From an uncultured bacterium (GTDB taxonomy: Bacteria; Pseudomonadota; Alphaproteobacteria; Rs-D84): a stretch of 64,000 bases of DNA. The notes under the pieces are model-generated. The model had not been told where the DNA came from. It saw only the letters and a program-made list of their open reading frames with translations, and ran no database searches. A program made the position numbers and the translations under genes. This document shows positions 34,742 to 61,198 of this stretch, one piece after another (the first letter of the stretch is position 1; every line of letters starts with the position of its first letter). The stretch is from positions 25,086-89,085 of the forward strand of contig CATNBF010000002.1 of the NCBI GenBank assembly GCA_950096895.1, written 5' to 3'.

Positions 34742-34817
34742 GCCGGTGTAGCTCAGCTGGTAGAGCATCTCATTCGTAATGAGGGGGTCGTAGGTTCAAG
34801 TCCTATCACCGGCACCA
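34742..34817 (+). tRNA. tRNA-Thr (CGT)
   Basis: GCCGGTGTAGCTCAGCTGGTAGAGCATCTCATTCGTAATGAGGGGGTCGTAGGTTCAAGTCCTATCACCGGCACCA. The acceptor stem GCCGGTG/CACCGGC pairs, and the anticodon loop is TT-CGT-AA. Confidence 0.95.
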
Positions 34818-34856: not shown

Positions 34857-34932
34857 TATTAAAAAATATTTGACATTTTATATTTTTTGTCTATTATATA
34901 TTGGAATTAAGTTCAATAAGAGGATTTTACAA

Positions 34933-40596: not shown

Positions 40597-40630
40597 TAAA
40601 AAAAACCGGCATTGCCGGTTTTTATTTTTA
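40597..40630. terminator. Bidirectional intrinsic terminator
   Basis: aaaaaaaaccggc-att-gccggtttttattttt, at the 3' end of the minus-strand skp-like gene. Confidence 0.7.
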
Positions 40631-41299
40631 GAAACCCATGGGTTTATCCATCTTTACCTTGGATACTTTTTTATTCAAGGCCGAAATTACTTCGTCTGTG
40701 ATATCCAGGTTTTCCGCCCCTGCACCCATCCGGGCAAAGCGGCCATCAATCACCAGCGACAGGTTCTTTTTCGCAATGATACCTTCGATTAACGGATCCA
40801 AATGTTTGGTCTGGATTTCATTCAAGGCTTTTTGAAAGGCCATTTCAATGCTCTGCGCACGTTCGGTTAAATCACGTTGTAATTTTGCAACGCGCCCCTG
40901 GTAATCGGCGACGCGACGTTGCAAGGCTTCACGTGATAAAACATCTTGGGACTTTTCAATTTCGGTCTTTTCTTTTTCCAGAACTTTTTGTTCCCGGGTC
41001 AATTCATCACGCAGTTTTTCTTCGTACCCTTCTTTTTGTTTACGCAGGTCGGTTAACGCATTTGCCGTCCCTTGGATGGCATCCATGCGAATAACCGCGA
41101 TACGCAGGTTGGCCCCATTGGCGGCATCAACCGTCACTGTATCTAATGATTCTTGGACCGATGCCCCGCCACCATTATGCATGCGCGATACAGTCATCAC
41201 CCCCAATGCCGCGATCGCAATTACAATCGCCGCAATAATGCCGGATTTTACATACTTTTTTGTGGCCGGTGTTTGGGCCGCGTTTGTTTTGTTTGCCAT
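40628..41299 (-). CDS. OmpH/Skp-family periplasmic chaperone
   Basis: N-terminal anchor/signal (IIAAIVIAIAALGVMTV), a long coiled-coil (KQKEGYEEKLRDELTREQKVLEKEKTEIEK...) and a Skp-like C-terminus (IAKKNLSLVIDGR). Start taken at MANKTN. Confidence 0.75.
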   Translation of the reverse strand: MANKTNAAQTPATKKYVKSGIIAAIVIAIAALGVMTVSRMHNGGGASVQESLDTVTVDAANGANLRIAVIRMDAIQGTANALTDLRKQKEGYEEKLRDELTREQKVLEKEKTEIEKSQDVLSREALQRRVADYQGRVAKLQRDLTERAQSIEMAFQKALNEIQTKHLDPLIEGIIAKKNLSLVIDGRFARMGAGAENLDITDEVISALNKKVSKVKMDKPMGF

Positions 41300-41382
41300 G
41301 ATATCCTTCCTTTGGTTTATTATGCTTGGTAAAGAGTATAACAATAAAAATTTGAAATGCAAAGATGAAACTTTTTCATCTG

Positions 41383-42057
41383 TTATCGGGCCGGGGCCAG
41401 GCGGATTTCCACCCGTCTGTTCATCAAACGGCCAATATCATCTTGGGCCGCGATGGGCCGGGCCGATCCCCGGCCTGTGATAAACATGCGGGCCGTATTA
41501 ATCCGATGTTGGGCCAAGTATACCGCCACCCGTTCGGCCATATCCAGTGACATGCGTCGCGCCGCATCCCCGTCACGCATCGCATCGGTATAGCCGGCGA
41601 TTTCAATAAACGTTGCATTATATTGGCGCAAGATCTTGGCAATGATATTTAGTGTGTCGTCCCCTGTTGCCGAAATATCTGGGGCATTTAATTCCATAAT
41701 GGCGTCACGTACCAAGATGACAACCACATCTGTTCCGGCCCGTTGGACAGAAATTCCCGGCTTGCGTAATGCATCATACAGGGTAAATTCCAAACGTGTC
41801 ATATATTGCAGTGCGGCCATGTTATCATTGGCAGTTTTATCCCCATAATCTGCGGTGGGATTTTTCTCTGAATTGCTGGTGATCAATTGGCCGCCCGCCC
41901 CCAAATAGACCGGCCGCTTGGCAATACGGGCGGTGTCGGTCATGTCCGACATGCTGGCCCCACGCAGGTGGGTTGCCCATGTGGCGCGATCCGGGCTGTG
42001 GTACTTGATACAGGATGCCAATACCAACGTTGTTAAGATCAGGGCAAATTGACGCAT
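41383..42057 (-). CDS. OmpA/MotB-domain lipoprotein
   Basis: Lipobox LTTLVLASC. C-terminal OmpA-like domain (IAGYTDAMRDGDAARRMSLDMAERVAVYL...NRRVEIRL). Confidence 0.8.
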   Translation of the reverse strand: MRQFALILTTLVLASCIKYHSPDRATWATHLRGASMSDMTDTARIAKRPVYLGAGGQLITSNSEKNPTADYGDKTANDNMAALQYMTRLEFTLYDALRKPGISVQRAGTDVVVILVRDAIMELNAPDISATGDDTLNIIAKILRQYNATFIEIAGYTDAMRDGDAARRMSLDMAERVAVYLAQHRINTARMFITGRGSARPIAAQDDIGRLMNRRVEIRLAPAR

Positions 42058-42065: not shown

Positions 42066-42530
42066 TTATTCCACCATAAATGAAATCATGTTATCACCCG
42101 ATGACATACAGAAATCAGGCATGCCGTCAGCATTACTGTATCCGTTAACGCGTAACCCTGATGCCCATGTGGGAATGGCGGTGGTAAAGTATGCACAATC
42201 GCCATAGGACAGTCCGGTTAAATTAATTGAAAACATCGTGCCATCATCAGATGCCGTAATGGACCAATCGTCCCCGCCGATGGGGGCGCGATCGTTGCGT
42301 AACGCCCCGGCCTTGACCAAATAATCAACCGATACGCCCGAATAATCCCCGCGCGGGGCCATCATCAGGCGGACATTTTTTGCCACCTGGTCCAGTTCGG
42401 CTGTCGCGATGGTACGCATGCTGCGGTCGCGCATGGTTTTATACATGCCAATGGCCCCAGCCGTCATAATGGCGGCAACGGCCAAGACACCAATAATCTC
42501 GATCAATGAACGTCCAGATTCTGTGCGCAT
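42066..42530 (-). CDS. Type IV pilin-like protein (prepilin-type N-terminus)
   Basis: MRTESG|RSLIEIIGVLAVAAIMTAGAIGMY: a 6-aa leader ending in Gly, Glu at +5 and a hydrophobic alpha-1 helix. 154 aa with a C-terminal Cys pair (..YGDCAYF...DFCMSS), like a pilin D-region. Confidence 0.65.
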   Translation of the reverse strand: MRTESGRSLIEIIGVLAVAAIMTAGAIGMYKTMRDRSMRTIATAELDQVAKNVRLMMAPRGDYSGVSVDYLVKAGALRNDRAPIGGDDWSITASDDGTMFSINLTGLSYGDCAYFTTAIPTWASGLRVNGYSNADGMPDFCMSSGDNMISFMVE

Positions 42531-42555: not shown

Positions 42556-44193
42556 TTATTTCGTCACGCTGATGATTTCGGCATCTCCAAACAGATTCAT
42601 GGCATTGGCCACCAATGGATCAGATTCCAGTTCTGCACGCTTTTGCTCTGCCACGGTTTGGGTGTGATGTGATTCCATTTCACGTTCCAGCATCCATGTC
42701 CGGCCCGTCTTGTCAAATAACCATGCCGCCAATTTCTGGGCGAAATCACCATCGCCTTTGCGATCGTAATAGCTGATTTTTCCATCGGCAAAGGCGGTAA
42801 TTTCAATATTATTACTAAAATAGGAATAAAGTAATATTTCCCGTGCCCCTTGCAAGGCCGCGCCCAATTCTGTGGCCGATGTAATTGATATCTTTTCTTC
42901 ATCTGGCGATGGTGCCACTACGGATTGGGGTATGGGATCTGGTATTGGATCTGCGGGGGTCGGCATTGGGGTGGGGGCCACCGGTTGTGATGCGGTCACC
43001 GTTTGGGCGGCGGCCGGTGCCGGCGTTGTTGGTCGCGGCGTTGGGGCGGGGGCATTTTGCTTTAGTATTTCGGGGATCGATGGCATATCAGCAATATGCA
43101 TCAATCGAATAATTAACATGTCAAAGCATTGCTTTTGATTACCAGCCGCCGCCATTTCTGGGACAGACGCCACCATAACCTGCCATATACGTGACAGCGT
43201 ATTTAACGAGACGGATTTATTCAAATCTTGGATTTGTTCGCGCATATCGGCGGTATAGGGCAATGCCACCGCGTCGCCTGCGTGTAATGCCGGATGCATT
43301 CGGGTGGCCCAATGTGTCCATTCCATCATATCGGTCAGCAGCATTGCCAAATCTGCGCCATTGTTATATATATTATCCACCATGGTCAATGCGTCGGCCG
43401 TCGTTCCAGTTAACATGGTTCGCATTAAATCCATCACCACGCCACGATCAGCACGTTTTAGCATGTCCAGCACCGCAGATTCTGTAACAACGCCGCCGGT
43501 TTGGGCAATCGCCTGGTCCAACAGGGACAATCCATCGCGCACCGATCCATCGGCTGCGCGGGCCAATAATTCACAGGCCGCGTCATCCAGTTCGACTTTT
43601 TCCTGGGATGCGATCCACATAAAATGTTTTTTTAATGTTTCTACCGGTACCCGAACCAGGTCAAATCTTTGACACCGGGATAAAATAGTGACCGGTACCT
43701 TGCGGATTTCAGTTGTGGCCAAAATAAAGATAACGTGGGCCGGTGGTTCTTCAAGTGTTTTAAGCAAGGCGTTAAACGCCGATGTTGATAACATGTGCAC
43801 TTCGTCGATAATATAAACCTTGTACCGGCCATTGGTTGGACGGTATTGGGCCGCGTCCAAGATATCACGCATATTATCGACACCGGTATGTGATGCGGCG
43901 TCAATTTCCATAACATCAATATGTTGCCCGGCCGCAATTGCACGACAATTTTCACATGTGCCACATGGGGTTGCCGTGGCGTGATCCGCCGACAGACAAT
44001 TTAACGCCTTGGCCAGAATGCGGGCCGTACTGGTTTTCCCAGTTCCGCGAATTCCAGTGAATATATAGGCGTGCGCAATACGTGATGTATTGATGGCCGT
44101 GGTCAATGTTTTGACCAAAACATCTTGGCCGATTAAAGATTGAAAATCCTGGCTGCGATACTTACGCGCCAAAACGGTGTAATTGTTATCCAT
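42556..44193 (-). CDS. dnaX: DNA polymerase III subunit gamma/tau
   Basis: ARKYRSQDFQSLIGQ, Walker A GIRGTGKTS, Zn module C-x8-C-x2-C-x2-C (CLSADHATATPCGTCENC), DEVHMLS and SRC. Followed by a Pro-rich linker and a C-terminal domain. Start taken at MDNNYTV. Confidence 0.9.
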   Translation of the reverse strand: MDNNYTVLARKYRSQDFQSLIGQDVLVKTLTTAINTSRIAHAYIFTGIRGTGKTSTARILAKALNCLSADHATATPCGTCENCRAIAAGQHIDVMEIDAASHTGVDNMRDILDAAQYRPTNGRYKVYIIDEVHMLSTSAFNALLKTLEEPPAHVIFILATTEIRKVPVTILSRCQRFDLVRVPVETLKKHFMWIASQEKVELDDAACELLARAADGSVRDGLSLLDQAIAQTGGVVTESAVLDMLKRADRGVVMDLMRTMLTGTTADALTMVDNIYNNGADLAMLLTDMMEWTHWATRMHPALHAGDAVALPYTADMREQIQDLNKSVSLNTLSRIWQVMVASVPEMAAAGNQKQCFDMLIIRLMHIADMPSIPEILKQNAPAPTPRPTTPAPAAAQTVTASQPVAPTPMPTPADPIPDPIPQSVVAPSPDEEKISITSATELGAALQGAREILLYSYFSNNIEITAFADGKISYYDRKGDGDFAQKLAAWLFDKTGRTWMLEREMESHHTQTVAEQKRAELESDPLVANAMNLFGDAEIISVTK

Positions 44194-44261
44194 GCTTAAA
44201 CTTTCCTTTGCACACCAAGGATAACAAATCAAACCCGGATTTCAAGAATTAAAAAACGTGA

Positions 44262-44567
44262 TTATTTCAGGTTGGTGACAAAGTCAGAAAAACTGTCGTC
44301 ATCGTCCATGGCGTCGTCCGACGTGATGTCTGGATTGGCAATCGCCGTTGTTGGTGTTTTGTCATTGGGGCCGCGGGTGGAATCAATTTTTCCCTGTTCG
44401 GCGGCGACAATACGACCATAGTGTTCGGCCGCCTGCATCAGACGTTCGCGTTCGATTTCGTCGGCGGTCTGACGGGCCTGGTCCATGTATTGTTTACGTT
44501 TCTGACGCCATTTATGACACCGTTGAATCATCATGCCGACAGACGATTGGTTTTTTTTATTTTGCAT
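44262..44567 (-). CDS. DUF4167-like small basic/acidic protein
   Basis: YMDQARQTADEIERERLMQAAEHYGRIV resembles the alphaproteobacterial DUF4167 core (..AEHY.R) as I recall it. Acidic tail. Confidence 0.5.
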   Translation of the reverse strand: MQNKKNQSSVGMMIQRCHKWRQKRKQYMDQARQTADEIERERLMQAAEHYGRIVAAEQGKIDSTRGPNDKTPTTAIANPDITSDDAMDDDDSFSDFVTNLK

Positions 44568-44724
44568 ATATTTTTTCTTTTATTGGAAGTAATTGTTCCC
44601 GATGGCTTTGTTCCATCATTTATGTTCAACGGGGAAATCATAATGTATCTGAAAACCGATTGCAATATTTTTTTTCAAATGCTATCTTTCCAAGTAACCA
44701 AGAGAGAAAAGAGAGAATAATCCC

Positions 44725-46080
44725 GTGGCCCGGCAATCCGGAAATTTTTTATTACAAGCCTTGCTGGCGATATCTTTGATATTCGCGTTTATGCCCTTTG
44801 TTGCCCGCCAGGTGGCATCCCGTGACCAGGCATCGCAAATGTATGCTGTGACGCGCCAGATGGAAACGGCGGCGACTGCGGCCCGGATTTATATTCGGGA
44901 AAATGCGGGAAATTTACCATATGGTCAGACGGTGTTGGCGGGCAATGATTTTGCCGATACGTTGGAACCCTATGGCTTGCCATTGGGGTTTGTGGCGCGC
45001 ACTGCCCTGGGCCAGGATTTAATCCTGGTGATCAACAAGAATGCGACCGATGTCGGGGGGTATATTGATGCCATTGGCGGCGGGTTAAGTGGATTTCGCC
45101 GCGCAGAATTGGCCCGGCGGTTGGGCTTTTACGCGGCGGTTGTGGATGGGGGCGTCCGTTTGGGGATTGCGCTGGATGATGCCTATTCAGATATTGTTCG
45201 TCGCGATGATCAAGATCTGGACAATAATGCCTTTTTGATTGATTTGAATATGGCGGATTTTTCGGTGGCCAATGTGGGGGCGGTGTATGCCCATAATGGG
45301 GAATTTGAATCGTTCCAAGGGTCGACATTAAGTTTGAACGGTATTGAAAATGGCCGCAAGATTCGTCATAACATCACAACCATGACCGCCGACAAAACCG
45401 TGTTCCAGGCGGGTGATGGGGGGGCGGCACTGGCGGTGACGCGTGGGGGACTGGTGGCAGATTCACTATCGGTGCGTACAATTGCCAAGTTTGGTGATGC
45501 CGGGTCAATTACAACAGGGGCGGCGTCTGTGTATGATTTCTTTATGACGGCGGGCCGAACCAGTTTTACCGGTCCCAAAAAATGGGCGATTAATGGCAAT
45601 GTGGTTGCCGAAAATATGAATTTTACGGTCGATACGTTGGAAATATCTTCGTATCTAAATGCGTCCCGTGGTCAAGATGTTTACATTAATCCTGATAGCT
45701 TGGAATACAACACCCGCAGCGGGATCGAAGCAGATATTATTGCCGCGTCAAATATTACATTGCGTGATCAAACGTCTGATGAATTGATCAACGGCGGGGC
45801 GGGCGCGATTGTTTTGGATATTCGGCCGGCTGGGACATCGTTTTTGCCAGATGTCTTGGTTGATACGATTGACAACGGGGCCTTTCGCATTATTTCCCGC
45901 GCCGATGATAATGATGGGGCCACTGTTGATTGTCGGTCTATTATAACGGCACTGGATGGGGTTTATAATGCCAAGTCTTTGGCCCAATATATTGTGTGCC
46001 AATATGTTTATTGGTCACGTTTGGAAAAAAGAATTGATTTGAAACAATGTATGCTGGACGGAAAAAGTGATTGCAAGTAA
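44725..46080 (+). CDS. Large pilin-like protein 1 (prepilin-like N-terminus, Gln at +5)
   Basis: GTG start. MARQSG|NFLLQALLAISLIFAFMPF, then an amphipathic helix (TRQMETAATAARIYIRENAG). G/T/S/N-rich beta-strand-like C-terminal half with a C-terminal Cys cluster. Confidence 0.6.
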   Translation: MARQSGNFLLQALLAISLIFAFMPFVARQVASRDQASQMYAVTRQMETAATAARIYIRENAGNLPYGQTVLAGNDFADTLEPYGLPLGFVARTALGQDLILVINKNATDVGGYIDAIGGGLSGFRRAELARRLGFYAAVVDGGVRLGIALDDAYSDIVRRDDQDLDNNAFLIDLNMADFSVANVGAVYAHNGEFESFQGSTLSLNGIENGRKIRHNITTMTADKTVFQAGDGGAALAVTRGGLVADSLSVRTIAKFGDAGSITTGAASVYDFFMTAGRTSFTGPKKWAINGNVVAENMNFTVDTLEISSYLNASRGQDVYINPDSLEYNTRSGIEADIIAASNITLRDQTSDELINGGAGAIVLDIRPAGTSFLPDVLVDTIDNGAFRIISRADDNDGATVDCRSIITALDGVYNAKSLAQYIVCQYVYWSRLEKRIDLKQCMLDGKSDCK

Positions 46081-47281
46081 ACAGATCTTGGATGCCCAAC
46101 GCGGGGCGTCGATGATAGAAGTGCTGATGGTGATGGCAATTATTGCCATGATGACCCCGTTTGTTTATTCCCAAGTATCTGCCGCCGCCCAAGAGATTCA
46201 GGATATCGCCATGGCCCGTCGAATTGTGGCAACGCGTGATGGGGTGTTGAATTTTGTGCGTCGTAATCAAGATAATTGGGTCGGGGTTGATCAAATTAGG
46301 TTGGGGGATCAAGAGCTGGGCGAGCTGTCTGATTTGGCATCGGTTGGGTTTGTTGACAAGTATGACATGGGTGGGGTGGTAATGACCGATGTTTATTTGG
46401 GAATTGATCCAGATCGTGATGGATTGCGCGCGGCGCGCATTGCCCGTCATATTGGCGATGCGGCGGCGGTTGTGGCCGATGATGGGGTGGCCTATGGCGA
46501 TATGTGGGCGGTAACGGCCCCAGAATTTCGCCCAGGAATGGTTATTTATCGGGTTTCACGCAATGCGTCGGGTGATGATAAAACGCGCTATTTACATCGG
46601 GTATCGTCGGGTAACGATGATCTGAATACAATGATGCGTGATCTGAATATGGGCGGCCATGATTTATTTGATGTGGGAACCGTGATGGCGTCATCGGGAC
46701 GGATTGGGGATACGGCCGCCATGTTTATTGAATCTGATCTGGTGACGGCGTCAAATGCGTACTTTGTATCGGGGGCGAACATGGATGGGAACGCGGTATC
46801 GGTTGGTAATATGCGTGTGACCGGGGATGTGACCGGATTTCGCAGCATTACGGCCCAGAAACTAAACGGGGATAAATTCGGTACCGTTGGCCGGGTGATC
46901 ACAGATCGTGCGTCGATTACATCATCGGTTAATGTGTCACGTGATCTGACACTAAAAGCGGATACATCCCGCACCATCAGTGGGTTTTCCGGCATCCAGG
47001 CCGGTGTTGTTATGACGCCTTTTTTGGCGGTTGATGAAATGGTATTTTACGAGAATTTTGGATTAACTGTATCTGGGGAATTGTTAATGTCGACAAATCC
47101 GCCGATACGATTGGGGGCATGGTCATTTCCATCGGTGACGCCGCCCCGGTTTGTCGATTTGGCGGTGGCCCGCGCGCCCATGCCTGATATGCCTGATGCC
47201 GATGAATTTGGCGTGATTATGTCAGGGGGCTGGAAAGATGTTGCGGCGCAACCAATAACACCGGGGGGAAATTATGAATAA
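46067..47281 (+). CDS. Large pilin-like protein 2 (prepilin-type N-terminus)
   Basis: GTG start overlapping the previous gene by 14 nt. QRG|ASMIEVLMVMAIIAMMTPF has Glu at +5. Paralogy motif RYLHRVSSGNDDLNTMMRDLNMGGHDLFDVG. Confidence 0.6.
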   Translation: MIASKQILDAQRGASMIEVLMVMAIIAMMTPFVYSQVSAAAQEIQDIAMARRIVATRDGVLNFVRRNQDNWVGVDQIRLGDQELGELSDLASVGFVDKYDMGGVVMTDVYLGIDPDRDGLRAARIARHIGDAAAVVADDGVAYGDMWAVTAPEFRPGMVIYRVSRNASGDDKTRYLHRVSSGNDDLNTMMRDLNMGGHDLFDVGTVMASSGRIGDTAAMFIESDLVTASNAYFVSGANMDGNAVSVGNMRVTGDVTGFRSITAQKLNGDKFGTVGRVITDRASITSSVNVSRDLTLKADTSRTISGFSGIQAGVVMTPFLAVDEMVFYENFGLTVSGELLMSTNPPIRLGAWSFPSVTPPRFVDLAVARAPMPDMPDADEFGVIMSGGWKDVAAQPITPGGNYE

Positions 47282-48587
47282 AGATCTTTTGACCCGGGAC
47301 CACGCCCAACGTGGGGGGATGCTGGTTGAATTGATGATGAGTGTGGCCTTGGCAGCCTTGGTCATTCCGTTTATCTTTCGTTATCAACAGACAGCGGTTC
47401 GGCGCGCTGAAAATGTTGCCTTGGCCCGCCAGATTGAAACAATCCAAGGGGCACTGGAACGCTATATCATTGATAACCAGGCGGCATTATTGGCACCGGT
47501 CGGGAAAAACATTACGCGGGTTAAAATGGCGGATTTGGGGCCCTATGGCGTTTCGGATAATATACTGGCCCAATATGGGGATAAATATCAATTACGCGTC
47601 TTAAAGACCGCCGATCGGGGGGCGGATGCCACGCTGCAAGGGGTTATTGTCTATGATGCCCCGAACATATCCCCCGCCCGAACACGGGAAATTATTAACC
47701 TGGGGGGCGATAGCATGGGCTTTATCGACGACGCGCGGGCGTTCGGGGCATTTGGAACATGGCGTGTTGATGCAGTTGATTTGGGGGTTGGGTCATTAAA
47801 TGGGATTATTGAAACAACCATGCCGACCCGCGGTATGCCGCGATACCTGTGGCGGGTTCCGTCGGATACCAGTGATGATGCCACCATGATGTCGGGATTA
47901 AATCTGGGGGGGCATAATATATCTGATGCGCGATTTTTTGATGCGTCTGTGGGTCGATTTGATGCGTATTTACGGGCCGGGGTTATTTCGGCAAATAATG
48001 TGATGTTTCAAAATCGTACCACATTGGATCGGCATTATCAGACGCGCACCGCCACTGTGTCGGGGACATTATCATCTGATTCACGCAGTATGGATGTAAC
48101 GGGGACGTTGACACTGAATGATATGGGTAAATTTTCAAGCTTTGTAACCGAAGATCTGTGGGTGACGAATTTGACCTTAGGTGGGATTTCAATTGCCACG
48201 GATGCAGATCCGGCGGTGTTAAAGATTAATCAAAATCTGGATATGACCGGTGGACGCATTAATGCCTTGTATGCCAGTGTGGCATTCACCGGATCAATTA
48301 CCCCCCGTCTGGTGGTCAAGACACGTATCGAAGATTCCATTAACCCATCTTATTATTGGGATGTGGCATCGCGGACGGCGTTTTTATCAGATCTAACATT
48401 GGCCGAATTGACCCAGCGAATGGGGCCATTGGTTGCGGTTCGGGAAAAGCGCGGCGGCCCAGACGCGACATCAATCTTTGGGGCGGTGGCAACGAACAAG
48501 AATGCGACGGTATCAGATTATATGAATGCGATCAATGAAATTGCCCAACGGGTTCGGATCAAATATCGCCGGTTGAATTTACAATAA
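47274..48587 (+). CDS. Large pilin-like protein 3 (prepilin-type N-terminus)
   Basis: ATG preceded by GGGGGA, overlapping the previous gene by 8 nt. QRG|GMLVELMMSVALAALVIPF has Glu at +5. Paralogy motif RYLWRVPSDTSDDATMMSGLNLGGHNISD. Confidence 0.6.
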   Translation: MNKDLLTRDHAQRGGMLVELMMSVALAALVIPFIFRYQQTAVRRAENVALARQIETIQGALERYIIDNQAALLAPVGKNITRVKMADLGPYGVSDNILAQYGDKYQLRVLKTADRGADATLQGVIVYDAPNISPARTREIINLGGDSMGFIDDARAFGAFGTWRVDAVDLGVGSLNGIIETTMPTRGMPRYLWRVPSDTSDDATMMSGLNLGGHNISDARFFDASVGRFDAYLRAGVISANNVMFQNRTTLDRHYQTRTATVSGTLSSDSRSMDVTGTLTLNDMGKFSSFVTEDLWVTNLTLGGISIATDADPAVLKINQNLDMTGGRINALYASVAFTGSITPRLVVKTRIEDSINPSYYWDVASRTAFLSDLTLAELTQRMGPLVAVREKRGGPDATSIFGAVATNKNATVSDYMNAINEIAQRVRIKYRRLNLQ

Positions 48588-48610
48588 TATGTGGTATAAC
48601 AGGGTAAGAG

Positions 48611-49111
48611 ATGAAAATAAAATGCGATTTTTGCCAGACAGAATACACGGTTCCCCGAACCGCGCATGGGGCGGTACGATGCGCCTTGTGCGGGCATACA
48701 TGGAATGTGGTTAATATGGGACGGGTGAATGCATGGCTGGTGATGATATCGGCGATATGCGCGTTGTTGGCCGCAGGTATTTTTGTGGCGGCGGTTATTG
48801 CACGGTCACGGATTGATGCCGCCACAGTTGGGCCATTAACGCCAAAGGTATCGGAAATTGCATGGCAGAATGGGGACGATGCCGCGCCCCAGATGGTGGT
48901 TCGTGGGTCGATAACCAATAACACATCTGATATTTATGGGGTGCCGGATTTAATTATTACGTTGCGTGATGCGCATGATCATGTCTTGGGACGTCAAAAA
49001 TTTATGCCAACCGCCACATTAATCGAAGGCGGGGCAACCATTCAATTTGATTATCGTTTGGCCCCGGTTATGGGGGTAAAGCGGATTAGTGTGGAATTGG
49101 CGGGGGAATAA
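48611..49111 (+). CDS. Zinc-ribbon (MJ0042-type) membrane protein with DUF3426-like C-terminal domain
   Basis: MKIKCDFCQTEYTV...VRCALCGHTW (CxxC..CxxC), one TM helix (AWLVMISAICALLAAGIFVAAVI) and a beta-rich extracytoplasmic domain. Confidence 0.65.
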   Translation: MKIKCDFCQTEYTVPRTAHGAVRCALCGHTWNVVNMGRVNAWLVMISAICALLAAGIFVAAVIARSRIDAATVGPLTPKVSEIAWQNGDDAAPQMVVRGSITNNTSDIYGVPDLIITLRDAHDHVLGRQKFMPTATLIEGGATIQFDYRLAPVMGVKRISVELAGE

Positions 49112-49112
49112 C

Positions 49113-49577
49113 ATGGTGATACGGCAATTATTAATCGCGGTGTTCATGTGCCTGGCGGGGGCGGCGTGGGGGGCAGATGCCACCCCGGTTGTTCGGCGGG
49201 TTAGTCTGTTTTCCACCAGCACGGATTGGGCGGCGGTCACCGGATTACCGTGGGGGCAATATAGTGGCAAAATTATTGGGGATAAAAAGTTGACCACGCC
49301 AAACGGATTGATTCTTTATTATTTGGATGGCTTTCCCTGTTATGGCGAAGCCGATAGTGTTCGTTTATGGATTTCGCCCACCGGCAAGGTGGATGGCAAA
49401 TTGCGTTTGGTGTGCGTGCATGCCCCCACGGTGATTCAGTTTGCGTGGCGTAATGCCCCGGCCGATGCCGTGCAAAAGGCAACCACCGGGATCTTGGTTT
49501 GTCCGGTGACAGGTAACCGTGAATTGACGGTGGATCTGGGTAAATGCAGCCGGGGTAAAAATTGGGATAGTTATTAA
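49113..49577 (+). CDS. Secreted hypothetical protein
   Basis: Signal peptide MVIRQLLIAVFMCLAGAAWGADA. The start abuts the previous gene's stop. 4 Cys in the mature part. I recognise no family. Confidence 0.55.
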   Translation: MVIRQLLIAVFMCLAGAAWGADATPVVRRVSLFSTSTDWAAVTGLPWGQYSGKIIGDKKLTTPNGLILYYLDGFPCYGEADSVRLWISPTGKVDGKLRLVCVHAPTVIQFAWRNAPADAVQKATTGILVCPVTGNRELTVDLGKCSRGKNWDSY

Positions 49578-49578
49578 T

Positions 49579-50547
49579 ATGGCAACACAAGACACACGGA
49601 CATTTATCGTTGAACAATCAGATGCCGGGACGCGGCTGGATAAGTTTTTAGCCGGCCAAATGCCCGATTTTTCGCGCAGCGAGATTCAACGTTTCCACAT
49701 TACCCGTGATGGGATGCCGGTCAAGATGTCGGAACGTTTGCGCACGGGGGATGTATTAGTGGTGGATGTCCCGGATGTTGGCCCGGCCCAGCCGACGGCC
49801 ACGGCATCATATGATTTTGATCTGGATATTTTATACGAAGACGATGACATTATTGTTATTAACAAGCCGCGGGGGGTGGTGATGTATCCATCGGCGGGCA
49901 ATACGGATGGCACATTGGTTCAAAATATATTGGCCCATTGTTCGTTATCGACACTGGGGGGGGCAACCCGTCCGGGTGTGGTGCATCGTCTGGATAAAGA
50001 TACCAGCGGGGCGATGGTATTTGCAAAGTCTGATGCGGCCTATCGCGCGTTGGTGAAAACATTTATGGCGCATGATTTAACGCGAAAATATGTGGCCTTT
50101 GTGTGGGGAATTCCCACCTGGGCAGAGGCGGATATCACCGGCAACATTGCCCGTTCATCCCGTAATCGTCAGAAAATGAGCATGGTTAAATCCGGGGGCA
50201 AGCCGGCCCATACATCTGTGGCGGTGTCCGATGTTTGGACCCGGGCCGGTGTGTCATTGATGCGGTGCACGTTAATGACCGGTCGCACGCACCAGATTCG
50301 CGTTCATTTATCGGCACACGGTTTTCCGGTTTTGTGTGATCCGGTCTATGGCCGGGGGGCGACCCGTTTGGGATCGGTGCGCAATGCCGATTTGTTGGAA
50401 TTTCTGAAAACCCATGATGGTCAGATGTTACACGCCGAAGTGTTAGATTTCGTGCATCCTGTTACCGGTGTGCCATTGCATTTCAAGGTGCGCATGCCCG
50501 ACGATATGCAAGAGTTAAAAGCGATCTTGGACGATATGGATTCCTAA
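49579..50547 (+). CDS. rluD: 23S rRNA pseudouridine synthase, RluA/RluD family
   Basis: S4-like N-terminus (GTRLDKFLA), the catalytic HRLDKDTSGAMVFAKS motif and HQIRVHL. Confidence 0.9.
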   Translation: MATQDTRTFIVEQSDAGTRLDKFLAGQMPDFSRSEIQRFHITRDGMPVKMSERLRTGDVLVVDVPDVGPAQPTATASYDFDLDILYEDDDIIVINKPRGVVMYPSAGNTDGTLVQNILAHCSLSTLGGATRPGVVHRLDKDTSGAMVFAKSDAAYRALVKTFMAHDLTRKYVAFVWGIPTWAEADITGNIARSSRNRQKMSMVKSGGKPAHTSVAVSDVWTRAGVSLMRCTLMTGRTHQIRVHLSAHGFPVLCDPVYGRGATRLGSVRNADLLEFLKTHDGQMLHAEVLDFVHPVTGVPLHFKVRMPDDMQELKAILDDMDS

Positions 50548-50671: not shown

Positions 50672-53600
50672 ATGTTTTTCATGCAAAAAGCAATTGGATT
50701 TATGGCGGTTATGACGGTTATCTCTGGGGGATATGCGGTGACCAGTGCGCGTCCCAGCGTGATGAAAAGTGCATCATCGCGGATGCCATCGCTGACCACG
50801 TCTGTGACCCGTGGGTCAACTATTACTGTGACGCCATCAATGCCGACAACAACCGACACGGAATGCATCGATGATTATTTATCTTGTTTGAATGACGGGG
50901 ATGTCTGTGGGTCTTCTTTTGAAGAATGCACAACGCGTGTTTTATTCCATGCCCAAATGCCTAAGTGTCTGAATGTGTTGAACCAATGTTCTGCCAATGC
51001 GATTAATCGGTTATATGGAACATCGGCCACAACCAGTCTGGGGGCAATTGCATCCAAGAATGAACATGGCGAAGTGGTTGATTACACCTATCCGACAGAT
51101 GGCAGTATGTTGGGCCAAATGATCACAGGCGCGGCCATTGCCAATATGTATAACACGCCTGATTGTGTCAAACGGTATACCGCCTGTGTGCGTAAAGAAA
51201 ATGTTTGTGGGACGGATTTCGAATTATGCACCACCACCAAGGAATTCAAAAAACAACGTGTTTATTGTGACAATGTGTTGGCCCGCTGCCAATCTGAGGG
51301 GGTTAAAGAACTGTTTGGATCAACGTCCAAGACCGCGACCCCCACAAGTGATAGTCGCATTGGTGAATTAATTGCCGATGGGGCGTCATTGGCCGCGATT
51401 AATGCGGTTTCGACATGTTACAAGGTGATTGATCAATGTATCTTGAATACATGCCGCAACAATCCGTTCAAATGTATTGCGGGTACATCACGTGTCGCGG
51501 TGGATGCCGCCACGGATTCTGCCAATGGGACCAATACAGTATTGGGCCAAGATGCTCTGGCGGTGTTGTCGCAATCAGATGTTGATCGTTTTATCAAAGA
51601 TGCCTGTTATGAAACGGTAGCGACAAACAAATATTGTCATATGACGTTCTTGACCGATGGCCAGGCCCCCAGCAATGCGCAATTAAAAGATGAAATGAAC
51701 CAAGAAGATGTTTATAACGATGCGTATTCGACACGGATGTCTTCGGCTATTAAGACTAAACTGGATGTCATGGCCCAGGATTTCGACACCAATGCCAAGG
51801 ATATGTGTTCACAAACCATCCAAAACTGTGCCATGCAGTATTGTGCCGGCGGCAGTGGGGTTGCCTGTTATTCAAAGGTGTTCGGCCAGAACAGTGCCAG
51901 CAAGACAGTCAATAGCTCATCAACCTATGAAGAAATTAAAAGGGGATGTGAAGCGGTTGTAAATACAGATGCAAATTGTATCTATGCGGCAAACAGCCCC
52001 CGGACAGTTTGGAACAATAATTCTTATACCTATATCCAAGATGGGGTATTTAGCACGTTGTTCCCCAAGGCAACCAACGGGACATCTGGTGCCGGAACCG
52101 AAGGGGATCCCATCGGGGCCGTGGCGTCATTAAATGCCAGATTGACATCAACATACAATGCCGCAGGTATAGAGAGATTGCGCCGTTCATGTCTGAGTGT
52201 GGCGGACAGTTGCGTGCGGACCTTGTGTGGGGCCGATTTTGAGAACTGTTATCGTAACCGCACAGATGTATATTCTGATTTGACCAGTTCGGGAGATGAG
52301 ACCTTTAATAAATCTATGAACAAAGTTGGTGGTGTTTTAGATTACACGGTTGTTTTGGGATTGTGCCTGAATACGGTCAAAAATACATCTTCGTGTGAAG
52401 AACATTTGAAAATCACGACAGAGCAGTTAAAAGATAATGAAACAAATGCTTCCTGGGGGACGGCAGGTTCGGTGCGTGATGGTTGGATCGATGCCGGTGC
52501 AGCGTCCAAGATGGCGGTAAATAAAGAAACAGTTAATGCCGTTGATGAATATGGCAATGACTTGTGTACGAACAAGGCCGGCGAACAAGGTGTGTGTAAT
52601 ACAATGTCGCCAGATGGTTCTGTCTATGACACCAATGTCCAGATCTCTTATACGAATTATCTTCAGAGCAAGGCAGCGTCTGAGTTATTCAAGGAATTGA
52701 TCTTTGATTTAGAAAAAGAAGCCCAGGCAAAATATAATTCCAAATTAACCAAAGAACAAAATGCCTGTTTGGCGGCGAACCAAGGGGGCTTGATGGGCAA
52801 CCGCGATAACGGCAGTACGTATTTGTGGGCAAAATTAAAGAGCAATAAAACACCCAAAGATTATTCGATCAAGGGTCTGACGGAAAAGCAGTTTACCACC
52901 AGTAACGATCTTTATGGATCATTCTGTCGGGTGCGGGTCAATCTGGTATCTGATGATAAACAGATCCAAGATGCGATCTTAAAGGGTAAAGATTGGGCAA
53001 CCGCATACTTTGCTGTGGGTGATACCTTTGCCTGTGGCAGCTGGATCCCCGCCGATGATCTGGAAGAAATTGCCAACAACGTCGCGGCCAGTGCGACCGA
53101 AGACATGGCAGATCGTCAAAAACGTGCACGCACATGGGCGACGGTTTTGGGATCGCTGGGCGGTGGTGTCGGTGGTGCGTTCTTGGGTGATGGAATCCAA
53201 AAAGGCAATATCTTGGGGGGCTTAACCGGTAACAAGGGTCAAAAGACCACAGATGTTGAAATGGTAAAAAATCGCTGTGAATTATATGTAAATAATGCAG
53301 TAGACCAATTGGACGCCATTGTGATAGAGACCGGCCAAGATATGTCTGGTAATGAACAAAATGCAAAGTTGGTCAAAGAGTTTGCAGAAAGTGCCATTAA
53401 AGCGGCCAAGGAACTGGGGCTGGATGCAGATGCGAAAGTAGTTTCAAATAACTTAAACGTACTTGCTGATGCCGTCAAAGTAAAGGAAGGCAACAGTGAA
53501 GGCAATGGGTTGCAATCTAACAATGGTGATAACCGTTTGGCTGCTGTGAAAACGAGTGTTCGTGGATCGTTAGAGAAATTAGGGGAAGGATGTAAAGCAG

Positions 53601-53860
53601 CAGATAGCTTTAAGAATGGCGAACAGGCAAAAAATAAAAATGGTTGGATTGGGCCGGTTGTTGGATCGACGGTGACAGCTGTGGTGGGCGGACTGGCGAT
53701 TAACAAGGCGACCAAGGCCATTCAGGATAGTAAGCTGAGCAAGGAACAACAGCAAGCCTATGACCAGTTTATGGAATCTGTGGGTAAGCATATCCATTGT
53801 TATATCGGCCCAGACGAGGCAGGTGACTATGGCGACGTGGTCAGCGTAACCTTGGATTAA
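50672..53860 (+). CDS. Large secreted cysteine-rich protein (1062 aa) with repeated Cys modules and C-terminal Gly-zipper segments
   Basis: GGAG Shine-Dalgarno 7 nt upstream. Signal peptide (AIGFMAVMTVISGGYAVTSA). Two 52-aa modules exactly 100 aa apart with identical Cys spacing, plus further C-x6-C-x4-C modules. Gly-rich hydrophobic segments near the C-terminus (WATVLGSLGGGVGGAFLGDG; GWIGPVVGSTVTAVVGGLAI). Confidence 0.7.
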   Translation: MFFMQKAIGFMAVMTVISGGYAVTSARPSVMKSASSRMPSLTTSVTRGSTITVTPSMPTTTDTECIDDYLSCLNDGDVCGSSFEECTTRVLFHAQMPKCLNVLNQCSANAINRLYGTSATTSLGAIASKNEHGEVVDYTYPTDGSMLGQMITGAAIANMYNTPDCVKRYTACVRKENVCGTDFELCTTTKEFKKQRVYCDNVLARCQSEGVKELFGSTSKTATPTSDSRIGELIADGASLAAINAVSTCYKVIDQCILNTCRNNPFKCIAGTSRVAVDAATDSANGTNTVLGQDALAVLSQSDVDRFIKDACYETVATNKYCHMTFLTDGQAPSNAQLKDEMNQEDVYNDAYSTRMSSAIKTKLDVMAQDFDTNAKDMCSQTIQNCAMQYCAGGSGVACYSKVFGQNSASKTVNSSSTYEEIKRGCEAVVNTDANCIYAANSPRTVWNNNSYTYIQDGVFSTLFPKATNGTSGAGTEGDPIGAVASLNARLTSTYNAAGIERLRRSCLSVADSCVRTLCGADFENCYRNRTDVYSDLTSSGDETFNKSMNKVGGVLDYTVVLGLCLNTVKNTSSCEEHLKITTEQLKDNETNASWGTAGSVRDGWIDAGAASKMAVNKETVNAVDEYGNDLCTNKAGEQGVCNTMSPDGSVYDTNVQISYTNYLQSKAASELFKELIFDLEKEAQAKYNSKLTKEQNACLAANQGGLMGNRDNGSTYLWAKLKSNKTPKDYSIKGLTEKQFTTSNDLYGSFCRVRVNLVSDDKQIQDAILKGKDWATAYFAVGDTFACGSWIPADDLEEIANNVAASATEDMADRQKRARTWATVLGSLGGGVGGAFLGDGIQKGNILGGLTGNKGQKTTDVEMVKNRCELYVNNAVDQLDAIVIETGQDMSGNEQNAKLVKEFAESAIKAAKELGLDADAKVVSNNLNVLADAVKVKEGNSEGNGLQSNNGDNRLAAVKTSVRGSLEKLGEGCKAADSFKNGEQAKNKNGWIGPVVGSTVTAVVGGLAINKATKAIQDSKLSKEQQQAYDQFMESVGKHIHCYIGPDEAGDYGDVVSVTLD

Positions 53861-53895: not shown

Positions 53896-54300
53896 GTTCA
53901 TTGAATCGGGGGCGATTTGTAACATATATCCGCGTCTGGTGTATGGCGTGGGGAATAAAAACGCATGGGGAAAAATGGCGGAAAAAACATTTGAAGATTG
54001 GGGTTAAGAAGCTATTTTTCAGGAAATAGTGTATCATATTGGCATAATGCGTATTTTGACACGCCCCAATCACAGATTGGGATCGATGTTTTTACATGAC
54101 GCCATGGTCCGGGTGTGTCCAACCTGAAAAAAGGCCCTTCTTAAAAGCCATGCCGCGTTTGCCGGGCACGGAATAAATTCTATCATTTTATGTGGAATAT
54201 TTTCAATGAGTATTTTTTTATCGCGCTATCTTTAGGATGGGGGTTATTTTTATCTTTGCCCTGGGTAAAAATTATGATAAAATTAATCACAAGAGAGAAT

Positions 54301-55959
54301 ATGAAACATCTAACAAGATTTTTGGTTTTTGCGTTATTCCTGGTTCCGGGGGTGGATGTGCATGCCACGGTGGCAACCACATCAGGGTCTAATTTAACGG
54401 CATATAACCCGAATATGGGGGCCATTAATAATAACAATTGGAATAATGCGTTGAATCCGCGAACGCCGGGCGGGGCGACGGGAAATGCATCGGCGAATTT
54501 TGGAAATTGTAATTCGGTGATCTTGCGCTGTGCCCAGCCAAAGTGTGCCACCGGCGGATGTGTATCGATGGATGTGGCAACCCCGATTGTGGCGGGGTGT
54601 GTTCAATCTAATGATGCGTGCAAGCAATATGGGGATGATCTGATTCAATCGATTGCGGCCCAATTGGTGGCCAGTTCGACGGCCAAGGCAAACCAGGCGG
54701 CAATGAACGCCCAGGCATCCGCGGCCCAGGCCGCCGCCGCCCAGTCGCAGCAGCAGTTACAACAGATGCAGGCCCAGATGCAGCAGATGCAATCCCAGAT
54801 GGCCCAACAGAATGCGGCCGCCACCCAACAATTACAGGCGGCAATCGAAGAACAGAAAAAAATTACGGCCCAGGCGGTTGCAGACGCCACCGCGGCCCAG
54901 GCCGCCGCAAATAATAGCGGGTTAAGCAATGCGCAGCTGGATGCGGCATCGAATGGGATATCGGCCGATGTCTTGGCCCGGCAACAAATTTCTGGGCAAA
55001 TCATGGACAAGGTTGATGGGGCCATGGTGGCCATGAAATCGTTAAAGGCGACGATGGAAAATGCGTTTGCCTATGCCGGATGTGATCGCAATGGGGACAA
55101 TTGTACGGGCCCCAAACGGGTCAAGATGTTCAAGGACAAGGCGGCAGATTTCTTTGATCCATATGAAAATGTCCTGGACGAGATTTATGATGCCTTGGTG
55201 ATGGCGCAATCACTGGGGGTGGATATTACCGATATTTACATGATGTTAAACGGGACATGTAATGCATGGGCCCAGTATTTATGTGCCGACGGCCAGGTGA
55301 TGCATTATACCAATCTGAATTGCGTTAACGGTCAATCGGAACCGGTCGGTGGCGTTACCAAAGCGGGTGTTTCATGTACCGTTGGCCAGGTGGTGCCCAT
55401 GTCGAATGGGGGATGCCAGCTGATTAAAATGTTGGCCAATGATGCAGAGGTGCAGCAGAACTGGCTTTATCCCGAAAGCGGGGATAACGGGGCCCAGGTA
55501 CGTGTTGGTTGTGCATCCGAAGCGTTAGAGAATTCGGTTCTGTTTCGTAACCGTAGCAAGCAGGCATCCATTGATATCGATGTCTTGCGCCGCATCATAG
55601 AGCAAGATGCCCCCAACATCGGGGTCAGTGCGTTTGGCAACAATACGCGGTCGGTTATTCCTGATGCGGTTAAATACTGTGCGGTTAATGCCGATACATA
55701 TGAAACATTGCAACAGGCGGCGTTGATGAAAAAGCTGCCAGAAAAAGTATGTGTGTCTGGAAATGCGTTAACACGTGATTTTGTGTCCAGTGCGCCGGTC
55801 GCCACGCAAGATTATGGGGCCCAGCTGGCGGCGGTGTTTGAATGTGAAGATTGGGCCAAGGGCCGCTATGTCAATGGGCGATGCATGTGCGGGGATCAGG
55901 TGATGGATCCTGATAAATCATACTGTGACGTGAATGGGTTTAACTATACGATAAAATGA
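54301..55959 (+). CDS. Secreted cysteine-rich protein with central Gln/Ala-rich coiled-coil (552 aa)
   Basis: Start taken at MKHLTRFLVFALFLVPGVDVHA (signal peptide). Contains a C-x6-C-x4-C-x4-C module (CNSVILRCAQPKCATGGC), a Q/A-rich repeat (QQLQQMQAQMQQMQSQMAQQ) and a Cys-rich C-terminal half. Confidence 0.65.
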   Translation: MKHLTRFLVFALFLVPGVDVHATVATTSGSNLTAYNPNMGAINNNNWNNALNPRTPGGATGNASANFGNCNSVILRCAQPKCATGGCVSMDVATPIVAGCVQSNDACKQYGDDLIQSIAAQLVASSTAKANQAAMNAQASAAQAAAAQSQQQLQQMQAQMQQMQSQMAQQNAAATQQLQAAIEEQKKITAQAVADATAAQAAANNSGLSNAQLDAASNGISADVLARQQISGQIMDKVDGAMVAMKSLKATMENAFAYAGCDRNGDNCTGPKRVKMFKDKAADFFDPYENVLDEIYDALVMAQSLGVDITDIYMMLNGTCNAWAQYLCADGQVMHYTNLNCVNGQSEPVGGVTKAGVSCTVGQVVPMSNGGCQLIKMLANDAEVQQNWLYPESGDNGAQVRVGCASEALENSVLFRNRSKQASIDIDVLRRIIEQDAPNIGVSAFGNNTRSVIPDAVKYCAVNADTYETLQQAALMKKLPEKVCVSGNALTRDFVSSAPVATQDYGAQLAAVFECEDWAKGRYVNGRCMCGDQVMDPDKSYCDVNGFNYTIK

Positions 55960-56705
55960 AACAGACAAAACGCGTTTTTATTGGTTTAATTGCTGCATTG
56001 GGGATGACGCCGATGTTGGGTTATGCGGCCGTTGATAATGGATGCGGGGTTGATGCCAACGATCATATTGCGGCGGAATTGGCCCTGTGTACAACGCATG
56101 CGTATAATATTGGTTTTGACATGAATCCTGGTACAGAATCAGAACGGCAATTAATGCGCGAAGTCATTGCCGCCAAGACCACAGTTATCACGCAACAGAT
56201 GTATAAACAGTATGAATATCTGGATGCAACGATTCGGCGTTTGAAAACCCAATTGGAAAAAGCGATTTTGACCACATCATTACAGGCGGCCGGTGCATCA
56301 GAAAGTCCCACAGGAACCATCGGGGCCGGTGTACGGGGCAATGACCGCAATGTTATTTTATCGGGGGCGGAAAACTGTTTGTTGAAATCGACGCCGTCTG
56401 ATGGATTAACATGTATCCAGAATAATATACGTATTGTTTTGAATGCGGTTGCGGCCGGTAATATTGGTGATGCCAAGCGGCAATTGGGCAAAGATCTGGA
56501 ATTTTCGCGCCAGTATGGGGTTATCGGGGGCAATACGGGCAAATATACCCTGGGGGCAACCGGGGCGACGTTTGATGATTGTAATCGGATGACGAACAGC
56601 CGTAATTCTGTTAATGATTGTGCCTATTCTTTGAATGTTCAGGTGATGAACAAAATCGATGAACGCAACCGGGAAAATCAGATGCAAAATAATCGATTTA
56701 TGTAA
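55956..56705 (+). CDS. Secreted hypothetical protein (249 aa), co-operonic with the Cys-rich proteins
   Basis: ATGA overlap with the previous gene. Signal peptide (VFIGLIAALGMTPMLGYA). 6 Cys arranged in pairs. Confidence 0.6.
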   Translation: MKQTKRVFIGLIAALGMTPMLGYAAVDNGCGVDANDHIAAELALCTTHAYNIGFDMNPGTESERQLMREVIAAKTTVITQQMYKQYEYLDATIRRLKTQLEKAILTTSLQAAGASESPTGTIGAGVRGNDRNVILSGAENCLLKSTPSDGLTCIQNNIRIVLNAVAAGNIGDAKRQLGKDLEFSRQYGVIGGNTGKYTLGATGATFDDCNRMTNSRNSVNDCAYSLNVQVMNKIDERNRENQMQNNRFM

Positions 56706-57706
56706 TCTGATTGGGATTTTATCTTGCTATATTTCTTTTTGTAAAAAATCATGGAATTCCGTGGGGCATGGATGGGTAGCGGCAATGTCCAAATTCATCA
56801 TCGAATTTTGATATTGGGGGTAATGTTTGACGGATCAATCGTGGGGGGGAATGGACACCGCCGATGGATCTGGAAATATGATGGCCGAAATCATAAACCC
56901 GGGGCGCAGAATTTTGAATGGATGATCTGGGCCCGATTCGCATCTGACCCAAACGGCAAGCGTGAATAATCCATGTATCTAAATCGGTTCTATTATTCGA
57001 TCCATGCGTCATAGTGCGACATTTTTTTGGATGCGGTGCCTGGGGGGGATAACACAACATGTCTGGGCCAGGCGAAATTAACACATACGAATTATTTGAC
57101 CCATCGAATGGGGAATTTTAGTTTATGATGGTGGCCCCGGTATCAATTATATTATTGTAAATATCATGGATCTGGTTTCGCCGCATCTTTTTTTTTAGGA
57201 GCAGAAAAAGCAAATAGATGTTCATGGCGCGCGGCCCCAGGGGCGGAAACATTCTATGGCCTGTGTTCTTTCCAGAACCATCAATGAAAACATAAATAAT
57301 GATGATGCGGCAAATATTGCATTGGGTGTATCTGGGGGGCTGGGCGGTATTCTATACATATCAATAGTGATAATGTGATGATTTAATATATTTGATGGGT
57401 ATTGTTGGGGATGTCTGATGGAAAATACCGGGGAATGTGAAAAGATCGGATATATCCCCATGGGAATGATGGGTCGGGCATAGGTACTTGGACCGTACCG
57501 GGGGACTTTTGTGATCATCAAGCACTTATTTATTGTTTGGGGTCGATAAAACCCAATCTTGTATGATTACAACATATGCCTTAGCCGATGATATTTGGAA
57601 AATTCGCCCCGCGGGGCGTCATGGGGTTTTTATGTCGGCGTTATTATTTATGGTCGTGGGGGGGAATGTGCCTTTGGGCCCGATCCGAATCGTTTTACGA
57701 TAACAA

Positions 57707-57733
57707 GAAACCGCCCATTTGGGCGGTTATTTG
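57707..57733 (-). terminator. Intrinsic terminator of the 57736-59022 gene
   Basis: aaccgccc-attt-gggcggtt. On the minus strand it is followed by tttcttgtt. Confidence 0.6.
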
Positions 57734-57735
57734 AT

Positions 57736-59697: not shown

Positions 59698-61198
<1,501 letters not shown>

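Follow-up and report, generated by a model that had tools for sequence, protein, structure and literature searches.

Three overlapping genes and a separate small gene encode proteins with prepilin-type N-termini

The window analysed here is a 64,000-nt stretch from an uncultured alphaproteobacterium of the order Rs-D84 (assembly GCA_950096895.1, contig CATNBF010000002.1, positions 25,086 to 89,085), and it carries three tandem open reading frames (ORFs) for which an original prediction, made from the letters alone, had proposed oversized pilin-like proteins with beta-solenoid-like bodies, served by machinery encoded elsewhere or belonging to an undescribed surface-fibre system. All three lie on the forward strand, namely ORF1 at 44725-46080 (451 aa, GTG start), ORF2 at 46067-47281 (404 aa, GTG start) and ORF3 at 47274-48587 (437 aa, ATG start), and by the comparisons described below each would encode a PilV-like minor pilin of the type IVb class, with ORF1 as the candidate cap subunit. 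The stop of ORF1 and the start of ORF2 overlap by 14 nt, where the junction reads GTGATTGCAAGTAA, and those of ORF2 and ORF3 by 8 nt, where it reads ATGAATAA; the coordinates and junctions read from the sequence agree with the gene layout first described.

A class III-type signal, that is, a leader ending in Gly followed by about 21 hydrophobic residues with Glu at +5, was found at the start of each protein, ORF1 differing by Gln at +5. The ORF1 signal (44725-44805) has the leader MARQSG and reads MARQSG/NFLLQ, the slash marking the end of the leader, before a 21-residue hydrophobic alpha1N. ORF2 (46067-46168) and ORF3 (47274-47378) have leaders of 13 and 14 residues ending in RG and read AQRG/ASMIE and AQRG/GMLVE, respectively, each again running into a 21-residue hydrophobic stretch, and all three carry Pro at +18. 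In a six-frame scan of the window for ORFs of at least 90 aa with the pattern G-x4-[EQ] plus a hydrophobic 21-mer inside the first 30 residues, only four ORFs fitted, namely ORF1-3 and a 154-aa ORF on the reverse strand (42066-42530), 2.2 kb upstream of ORF1. The latter, hereafter the small pilin, has the 6-residue leader MRTESG and a mature start of G/RSLIE (MRTESG/RSLIEIIGVLAV).

The conservation of these N-terminal residues was counted in 509 family proteins, of which those with an intact N-terminus (~460) were scored. Gly-1 together with Pro+18 was present in 162/162 members of the ORF3 family, 157/158 of the ORF2 family and 143/143 of the ORF1 family. Glu+5 was likewise found in 162/162 and 157/158 members of the ORF3 and ORF2 families, and Gln+5 in 141/143 of the ORF1 family, where the sequence G/NFLLQ is invariant. 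A protein that is to be cut by a prepilin peptidase and built into a filament requires Gly-1 and a charged residue inside the membrane helix (PMC8179133, PMC10191384), and an invariant Gly together with an invariant charged residue in the membrane helix matches this requirement. The prepilin-type N-terminal motif, including the Glu/Gln difference that had been noticed at the outset, is thus conserved family-wide and evidently under selection. ORF1 and its relatives further share four invariant C-terminal Cys, at residues 403, 425, 442 and 450 of ORF1.

Profile-profile comparison related the three families to one another, with a probability of 98.5 % for ORF2 vs. ORF3 (E 2e-15, 275 columns), 96 % for ORF1 vs. 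ORF3 (E 3e-9) and 92 % for ORF1 vs. ORF2 (E 8e-7). ORF1, ORF2 and ORF3 are, as judged from these profiles, paralogs, as had been proposed. Each protein has ~900-1000 relatives in a large protein database, all unnamed and without Pfam domains, and when a merged profile was run exhaustively with HMMER, 1187 representatives were retrieved at E ≤ 1e-3, the best 149 of which all fall within the three orthogroups and bring no outside context.

The three large proteins are divergent homologs of the pilus tip adhesin PilV

When ORF3 was searched by tblastn against 7.3 Gb of plasmid sequence, it matched coding sequences annotated as 'pilus tip adhesin PilV' at E 1e-6, with 31 % identity over residues 24-225, and the motif region of ORF2 gave weak matches to the same plasmid pilV genes. 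The families were then compared with an alignment of eight plasmid PilV proteins (413-437 aa) using hhalign, which gave a probability of 98.8 % for the ORF3 family (E 1.2e-16, 196 columns), 96.5 % for the ORF2 family (E 7e-10) and 94.9 % for the ORF1 family (E 4.7e-8). The ORF2-family alignment takes in the helix as well, its first column being the signal-peptide Gly. Those of the ORF1 and ORF3 families begin past the hydrophobic helix, and for these two families the PilV signal is therefore no composition artefact. The homology spans the N-terminal 200-240 residues at ~25-31 % identity, and ORF3 stands nearest to plasmid PilV.

The most conserved stretch of the PilV alignment, DYLYR..VPGHPELNRM.TAINMGGNN, matches the motif of the families studied here, so that PilV and the window proteins share the signature YL(Y/H/W)R...LN.M...NMGG(N/H)(N/D). 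The ORF2 copy lies at 46586-46678 (RYLHR...LNTMMRDLNMGGHD) and the ORF3 copy at 47841-47936 (RYLWR...ATMMSGLNLGGHN), and it was from these RYLHR/RYLWR segments, found again at the same places, that paralogy had first been read; the ORF1 copy at 45187-45279 is degenerate (SDIVRR...AFLIDLNMADFS). P0508, the most distant among the best 149 HMMER representatives, passes the Pfam Shufflon_N model (PF04917) at 31.7 bits, where 27.5 are required (E 1.5e-7), and also matches plasmid genes annotated as 'shufflon system plasmid conjugative transfer pilus tip adhesin PilV'; its source locus had no match in the genome or metagenome contigs searched. Across the families, Shufflon_N matched 3/41 ORF2-family members (best E 4e-4), 0/52 ORF3-family members and 0/41 ORF1-family members.

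Taken together, ORF1-3 are, on present alignments, divergent homologs of PilV, a minor pilin of roughly 430 aa that acts as adhesin of the type IVb thin pili of IncI-type conjugative plasmids, and would represent distant, clade-specific members of a characterised family, the PilV-type type IVb minor pilins. A confident PilV-type assignment had been named in advance as the result that would speak against a new family, and it was largely obtained, with the qualification that ORF1-3 themselves score below threshold and that the similarity covers the N-terminal 200-240 residues only. The view of ORF1-3 as oversized pilin-like proteins is retained, most likely as minor or tip pilins, and the undescribed fibre system is dropped in view of the PilV homology.

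The small gene is a homolog of type IVb major pilins

The small pilin (42066-42530, reverse strand) is a candidate for a type IVb-like major pilin. It matched a plasmid protein annotated as 'type 4 pilus major pilin' at E 1e-5 with 94 % coverage, and the gene for this plasmid protein forms part of a complete type IVb cluster that also encodes TcpQ, PilO2, an A24 peptidase, a platform protein, a secretin and two ATPases. A match to BfpA was found at E 2e-3, and the profile of the small-pilin family matched TcpA at E 0.013 over 112 residues and geopilin at E 0.0016. Overall, the similarity to BfpA, TcpA and the plasmid major pilins is full-length (E 1e-5 to 1e-2, 83-97 % coverage) and includes the C-terminal Cys pair, here two invariant Cys at residues 112 and 141 in a C-terminal disulfide-loop pattern. 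The small pilin differs from BfpA and TcpA in its short 6-residue leader and in Arg at +1, and the PilS_N, TcpA and N_methyl models remain sub-threshold; within the family, PilS_N matched 6/17 and N_methyl 13/17 members, all sub-threshold.

Against the ORF3-family profile, the small pilin gave an hhalign probability of 0.3 %, and it is therefore no fourth paralog. The gene is thus a homolog of type IVb major-pilin genes, and the locus accordingly combines one major pilin of type IVb style with the three minor pilins related to PilV. The statement in the original prediction that no assembly genes lie nearby stands for the machinery, as detailed below, and had overlooked this small pilin gene.

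Predicted secondary structure is compatible with a pilin fold, and beta-solenoid C-terminal halves are not supported

In the AlphaFold model of ORF3, obtained from a 52-sequence alignment, only residues 10-185 were confident (predicted local distance difference test, pLDDT, 76-89), and these form a 58-residue helix followed by a beta-sheet, with low-confidence coil beyond. The ORF2 model (79-sequence alignment) was better, with a mean pLDDT of 75.6, and shows a pilin-like module at residues 16-166 (pLDDT 84-95), a low-confidence linker at residues 170-200 that carries the most conserved motif, a beta-rich module (about residues 200-290; four strands, each 8-12 residues long), and a weaker C-terminus. 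The predicted secondary structure and its confidence would suit the lollipop fold of pilins, in which a long alpha1 packs on an antiparallel beta-sheet; Foldseek returned no significant neighbour. Weak Foldseek matches to phage fibres and to the adenovirus knob were dismissed as noise, and searches of PDB sequences with the family profiles gave only a weak match to the geopilin helix, for ORF3.

The C-terminal halves match PilV and each other poorly, and no relatives of them were detected in Pfam, NCBIfam or PDB searches. Their proposed beta-solenoid or beta-helix nature was rejected: no internal repeat was found in profile self-comparison, no beta-helix Pfam domain was matched, the ORF2 model is long-stranded, the corresponding part of ORF3 is low-confidence coil, and the enrichment in G/S/T/N/V is modest (0.37-0.44 vs. 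0.32-0.33). Assignments to GspK, TadG or Com proteins were likewise rejected on Pfam and NCBIfam scores. The NCBIfam equivalogs for GspH/I/J/K scored 10-15 bits against cut-offs of 80-150 with only the N-terminal helix aligned, and neither a TadE-like motif (PF07811) nor a von Willebrand factor A module was matched in Pfam at E ≤ 1 or in family-wide scans.

The pilin genes occupy a conserved core locus in uncultured gut and rumen bacteria

Genome scans placed relatives of ORF1-3 in no group other than uncultured Alphaproteobacteria of the gut and rumen, and many of these are labelled Candidatus Enterousia. In a comparison set of 106 fetched loci with ±10 kb flanks, from ~80 metagenome-assembled genomes, the orthologous triplet that the original prediction suggested looking for was present in all 106 loci and in the same order, and all four pilin genes take the same chromosomal place in every sampled relative (Candidatus Enterousia, order Rs-D84). 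The conserved arrangement comprises, on one strand, a skp-like gene, an OmpA-like lipoprotein gene, the small pilin gene, dnaX and a 101-aa ORF, and, on the other strand, ORF1-3, a gene for a zinc-ribbon/DUF3426 membrane protein, one for a 162-aa secreted protein, rluD and a gene for a 1062-aa Cys-rich protein. This order persists even where the proteins share ~30 % identity and reach lengths of 500-650 aa, and since it is kept despite such divergence, the locus is core and vertically inherited rather than an island.

The immediate neighbours of the pilin genes share this conservation. In all relatives, the small pilin gene is immediately followed on its own strand by the gene of the OmpA-domain lipoprotein (41383-42057, reverse strand, lipobox LASC) and then by that of a Skp/OmpH-like chaperone (40628-41362, reverse strand). 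On the forward strand, two genes at 48611-49577 begin 23 nt past ORF3 and encode a 166-aa MJ0042-type zinc-ribbon/DUF3426 (FxLYD-like) membrane protein and a 162-aa Sec-signal protein; the pair runs into rluD in all relatives and may be co-transcribed with the pilins. In some related lineages (P0396-P0470; loci L070, L074, L075 and L087), the three pilin-like proteins reach 500-650 aa through long Cys-rich or Asn/Asp/Lys-rich C-terminal extensions, the N-terminal 200-240 residues and the gene order being retained.

Further downstream, the 1062-aa secreted protein (50672-53860, forward strand) contains repeated Cys-rich units (e.g. C..Y..C......CG..FE.C) and Gly-rich hydrophobic segments near its C-terminus; it belongs to no Pfam or NCBIfam family, and its position is conserved at 32-55 % identity. 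Three signal-peptide proteins without a family are encoded at 54190-59022, two of 589 and 249 aa on the forward strand and one of 428 aa, Cys-rich, on the reverse strand, and together with the 1062-aa protein they constitute a block of exported family-less proteins adjoining an rRNA operon. This operon (59697-64000, forward strand) has tRNA-Ile (61283-61359) between 16S and 23S, and no tRNA-Ala was detected in the spacer. Elsewhere in the window, the gene at 23167-23817 encodes a second protein of the OmpA family, which has a glycine zipper. The segment 34001-36317 shows a G+C content of 0.40 vs. ~0.49 elsewhere, right after tRNA-Thr (34742-34817), and covers two overlapping family-less ORFs (34870-35634 and 35631-36317); a short segment may have been inserted here next to the tRNA. 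A class II fructose-bisphosphate aldolase family protein (PF01116, E 5e-92) is encoded at 20917-21957 on the forward strand, in contrast to a survey of Rs-D84 in which fructose-bisphosphate aldolase is said to be lacking (PMC12306168).

Comparison with characterised pilin systems

The closest characterised counterparts are the PilV proteins of the IncI1/IncI2 thin pilus (R64, TP114), of PAPI-1-like integrative and conjugative elements and of Salmonella Typhi, which at 413-437 aa are similar in size to the 404-451 aa proteins found here and share with them a prepilin-type N-terminus, a homologous globular domain, the signature motif and a variable C-terminal part. PilV differs in being a single switchable gene with a shufflon, in contrast to the three fixed paralogs found here, and its C-terminus is unrelated to the C-terminal halves of ORF1-3. 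A search for shufflon sfx-like repeats in 44000-49600 found only short repeats at chance level, and no integrase or recombinase was found among the scanned window ORFs; the shufflon is not a universal feature within the PilV family. PilV is moreover linked to pilL-U and a transfer region, whereas the genes described here are chromosomal, core and not so linked, whether in the window or at any of the 106 loci.

In architecture, ORF1-3 also resemble CofB, TcpB and LngB of enterotoxigenic Escherichia coli and Vibrio cholerae, which exceed 400 aa, combine a pilin module with beta-rich C-terminal modules and are paired with a major pilin, although no sequence or Foldseek match connects them with the window proteins. 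The trimeric tip and initiator role of CofB-type proteins (PMC6048534, PMC5207764) may serve as a model for ORF1-3 by analogy; CofB is a homotrimer of one gene product, and three paralogs would here suggest a heterotrimer. Tandem minor pilins of which exactly one lacks Glu5 also occur in the tip complexes GspI-J-K of the type II secretion system (T2SS) and PilH-I-J-K of type IVa pili (PMC10191384), but ORF1-3 are two to three times larger, do not reach the NCBIfam equivalog scores and have no gsp or pil operon context. The modular pilins PilB and PilC of Streptococcus sanguinis likewise carry a bulky extra module on a pilin module and present it by the filament (PMC8179133); unlike in those proteins, the extra module here matches no known domain.

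A type IVb-class filament is proposed for the locus

We propose that the four genes of the locus probably supply the pilins of a type IVb-class filament. All four proteins would be cleaved after the invariant Gly by a prepilin peptidase whose gene lies elsewhere, and the three large pilins would be made in matched amounts from their overlapping genes. Pilin tip complexes are capped by a subunit without Glu5, and assembly starts from them (PMC10191384); ORF1-3 would accordingly prime assembly and occupy the filament tip, with ORF1, which carries Gln instead of Glu at +5, as the candidate cap, and with the small pilin polymerising beneath them. Since CofB-type initiators are trimeric, three co-translated paralogs suggest a possible 1:1:1 heterotrimer. 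The PilV C-terminus sets target-cell recognition, the shufflon varies it, and mating pairs in the gut depend on it for their stabilisation (PMC9045228). The divergent C-terminal modules of ORF1-3 could correspondingly be the receptor-binding parts, three hard-wired variants standing in for shufflon-switched PilV C-termini, and would hold the bacterium to other cells or to surfaces in the gut. Such attachment would be important to this organism because Rs-D84 genomes are < 1 Mb, lack amino-acid, nucleotide and lipid biosynthesis and probably belong to partner-dependent bacteria (PMC12306168).

Several observations weigh against this proposal. In Pfam scans of ~50 ORFs of the window, neither an A24 peptidase nor a T2SSE ATPase, a T2SSF platform protein or a secretin turned up, in agreement with the earlier observation. 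In addition, tblastn with real type IVb proteins from two plasmids (PilN, O2, P, Q, R, U and M, and TcpQ) gave no match better than E 0.08 in the window or the 106 loci. Together these results place no assembly genes within 44 kb upstream and 15 kb downstream of the pilin genes or within ±10 kb in the relatives, which is in line with the earlier suggestion that the machinery, if present, is encoded elsewhere. A survey of 2025 mentions type IV pili for another lineage and not for Rs-D84 (PMC12306168). At the level of the proteins, ORF2 reaches 18.1 bits against PF07963 (N_methyl; cut-off 21.2) and 16.2 bits against TIGR02532 (cut-off 16.3), ORF1 and ORF3 gave no hit, nothing above threshold being found for any of the three in Pfam and NCBIfam scans, and ORF1-3 themselves do not attain the Shufflon_N gathering score in the Pfam scan; in the ORF2 family, N_methyl matches 18/41 members, all sub-threshold. 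The +1 residues are atypical (N, A, G/S and R), and Pro stands at +18 rather than +22. The Foldseek comparison recommended at the outset returned no significant neighbour, with none at E ≤ 1e-3 for the ORF2 and ORF3 models against the PDB or for the ORF2 model against BFVD, and the PilV alignment found no solved relative among PDB sequences, so that there is no PilV structure for comparison. Tip location, trimer and adhesion are inferred throughout.

As an observation in its own right, a lone VirD4/TraG-type coupling protein (T4SS-DNA_transf, TraG-D_C and TrwB_AAD_bind domains) is encoded at 10560-12824 on the reverse strand amid der and rsmE, and no other gene of a type IV secretion system (T4SS) was detected in the window, which shows that multi-component systems are scattered in this genome.

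Alternatives to the filament

The missing machinery, the N_methyl models that are not passed and the survey's assignment of type IV pili to another lineage, together with the housekeeping neighbours (dnaX, rluD, skp-like and OmpA-like genes), would suit pilin-derived proteins that form no filament, that is, uncleaved signal anchors acting as bitopic inner-membrane or periplasmic envelope factors, kept after the machinery was lost during genome reduction. We regard this as unlikely, since Gly-1 and Glu/Gln+5 are kept in ~460 sequences and in the small pilin, which would be difficult to account for if no peptidase recognised these proteins and they did not pack into a filament; moreover, a separate major-pilin-like gene is co-conserved, and one member of three without Glu5 mirrors real tip complexes. 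That same composition, one small and three larger pilins of which one lacks Glu5, resembles GspG plus GspI/J/K, and could instead point to a short periplasm-spanning endopilus or uptake pilus for T2SS-like secretion or Com-like uptake of DNA or nutrients, with no adhesive role. Uptake would be useful to hosts without nucleotide and amino-acid biosynthesis (PMC12306168), and weak NCBIfam matches to GspH, GspG, GspK and ComGE exist, restricted to the N-terminal helix. The specific homology, however, links these proteins with PilV and with major pilins of type IVb (BfpA, TcpA and a plasmid type 4 major pilin), not with Gsp or Com proteins, whose equivalogs score 10-15 bits against cut-offs of 49-158, and large variable C-terminal modules are typical of adhesins, so that an endopilus seems decidedly improbable.

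A non-type-IV fibre or beta-solenoid adhesin that merely mimics a prepilin N-terminus, as the original prediction allowed, is hardly credible by now: it would account for C-terminal halves that have no Pfam, NCBIfam or PDB assignment and are rich in G/S/T/N/V, but the PilV homology runs beyond the helix through the globular domain, internal repeats are absent, and the models show long strands, not short solenoid rungs. A bolder version of the type IVb proposal holds that a plasmid-type thin pilus was domesticated into the core chromosome of a sub-megabase lineage obligately dependent on partners, where a heterotrimeric tip of three hard-wired PilV paralogs in place of shufflon switching, capped by the Gln5 subunit, would dock partner or host cells, perhaps together with the T4SS of the lineage; in its extreme form, the pilin-like proteins would work without canonical type 4 filament machinery. 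We mention this version as conceivable, though rather doubtful. The original prediction is thus partly supported: its observation is real, and its reading holds in outline, with oversized minor or tip pilins and machinery elsewhere, while the part that assumed an unknown family fails.

Implications

Candidatus Enterousia and other Rs-D84 members are abundant uncultured gut and rumen bacteria whose route of metabolite acquisition is not known (PMC12306168). A universally conserved set of four pilin genes that takes up ~0.5 % of such a genome offers a concrete candidate for an attachment apparatus, and the ~200-residue C-terminal modules without a recognised fold are candidate receptor-binding domains. 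The locus also carries the PilV family beyond mobile elements into a chromosomal, vertically inherited setting, and provides a natural example in which paralog triplication takes the place of shufflon switching.

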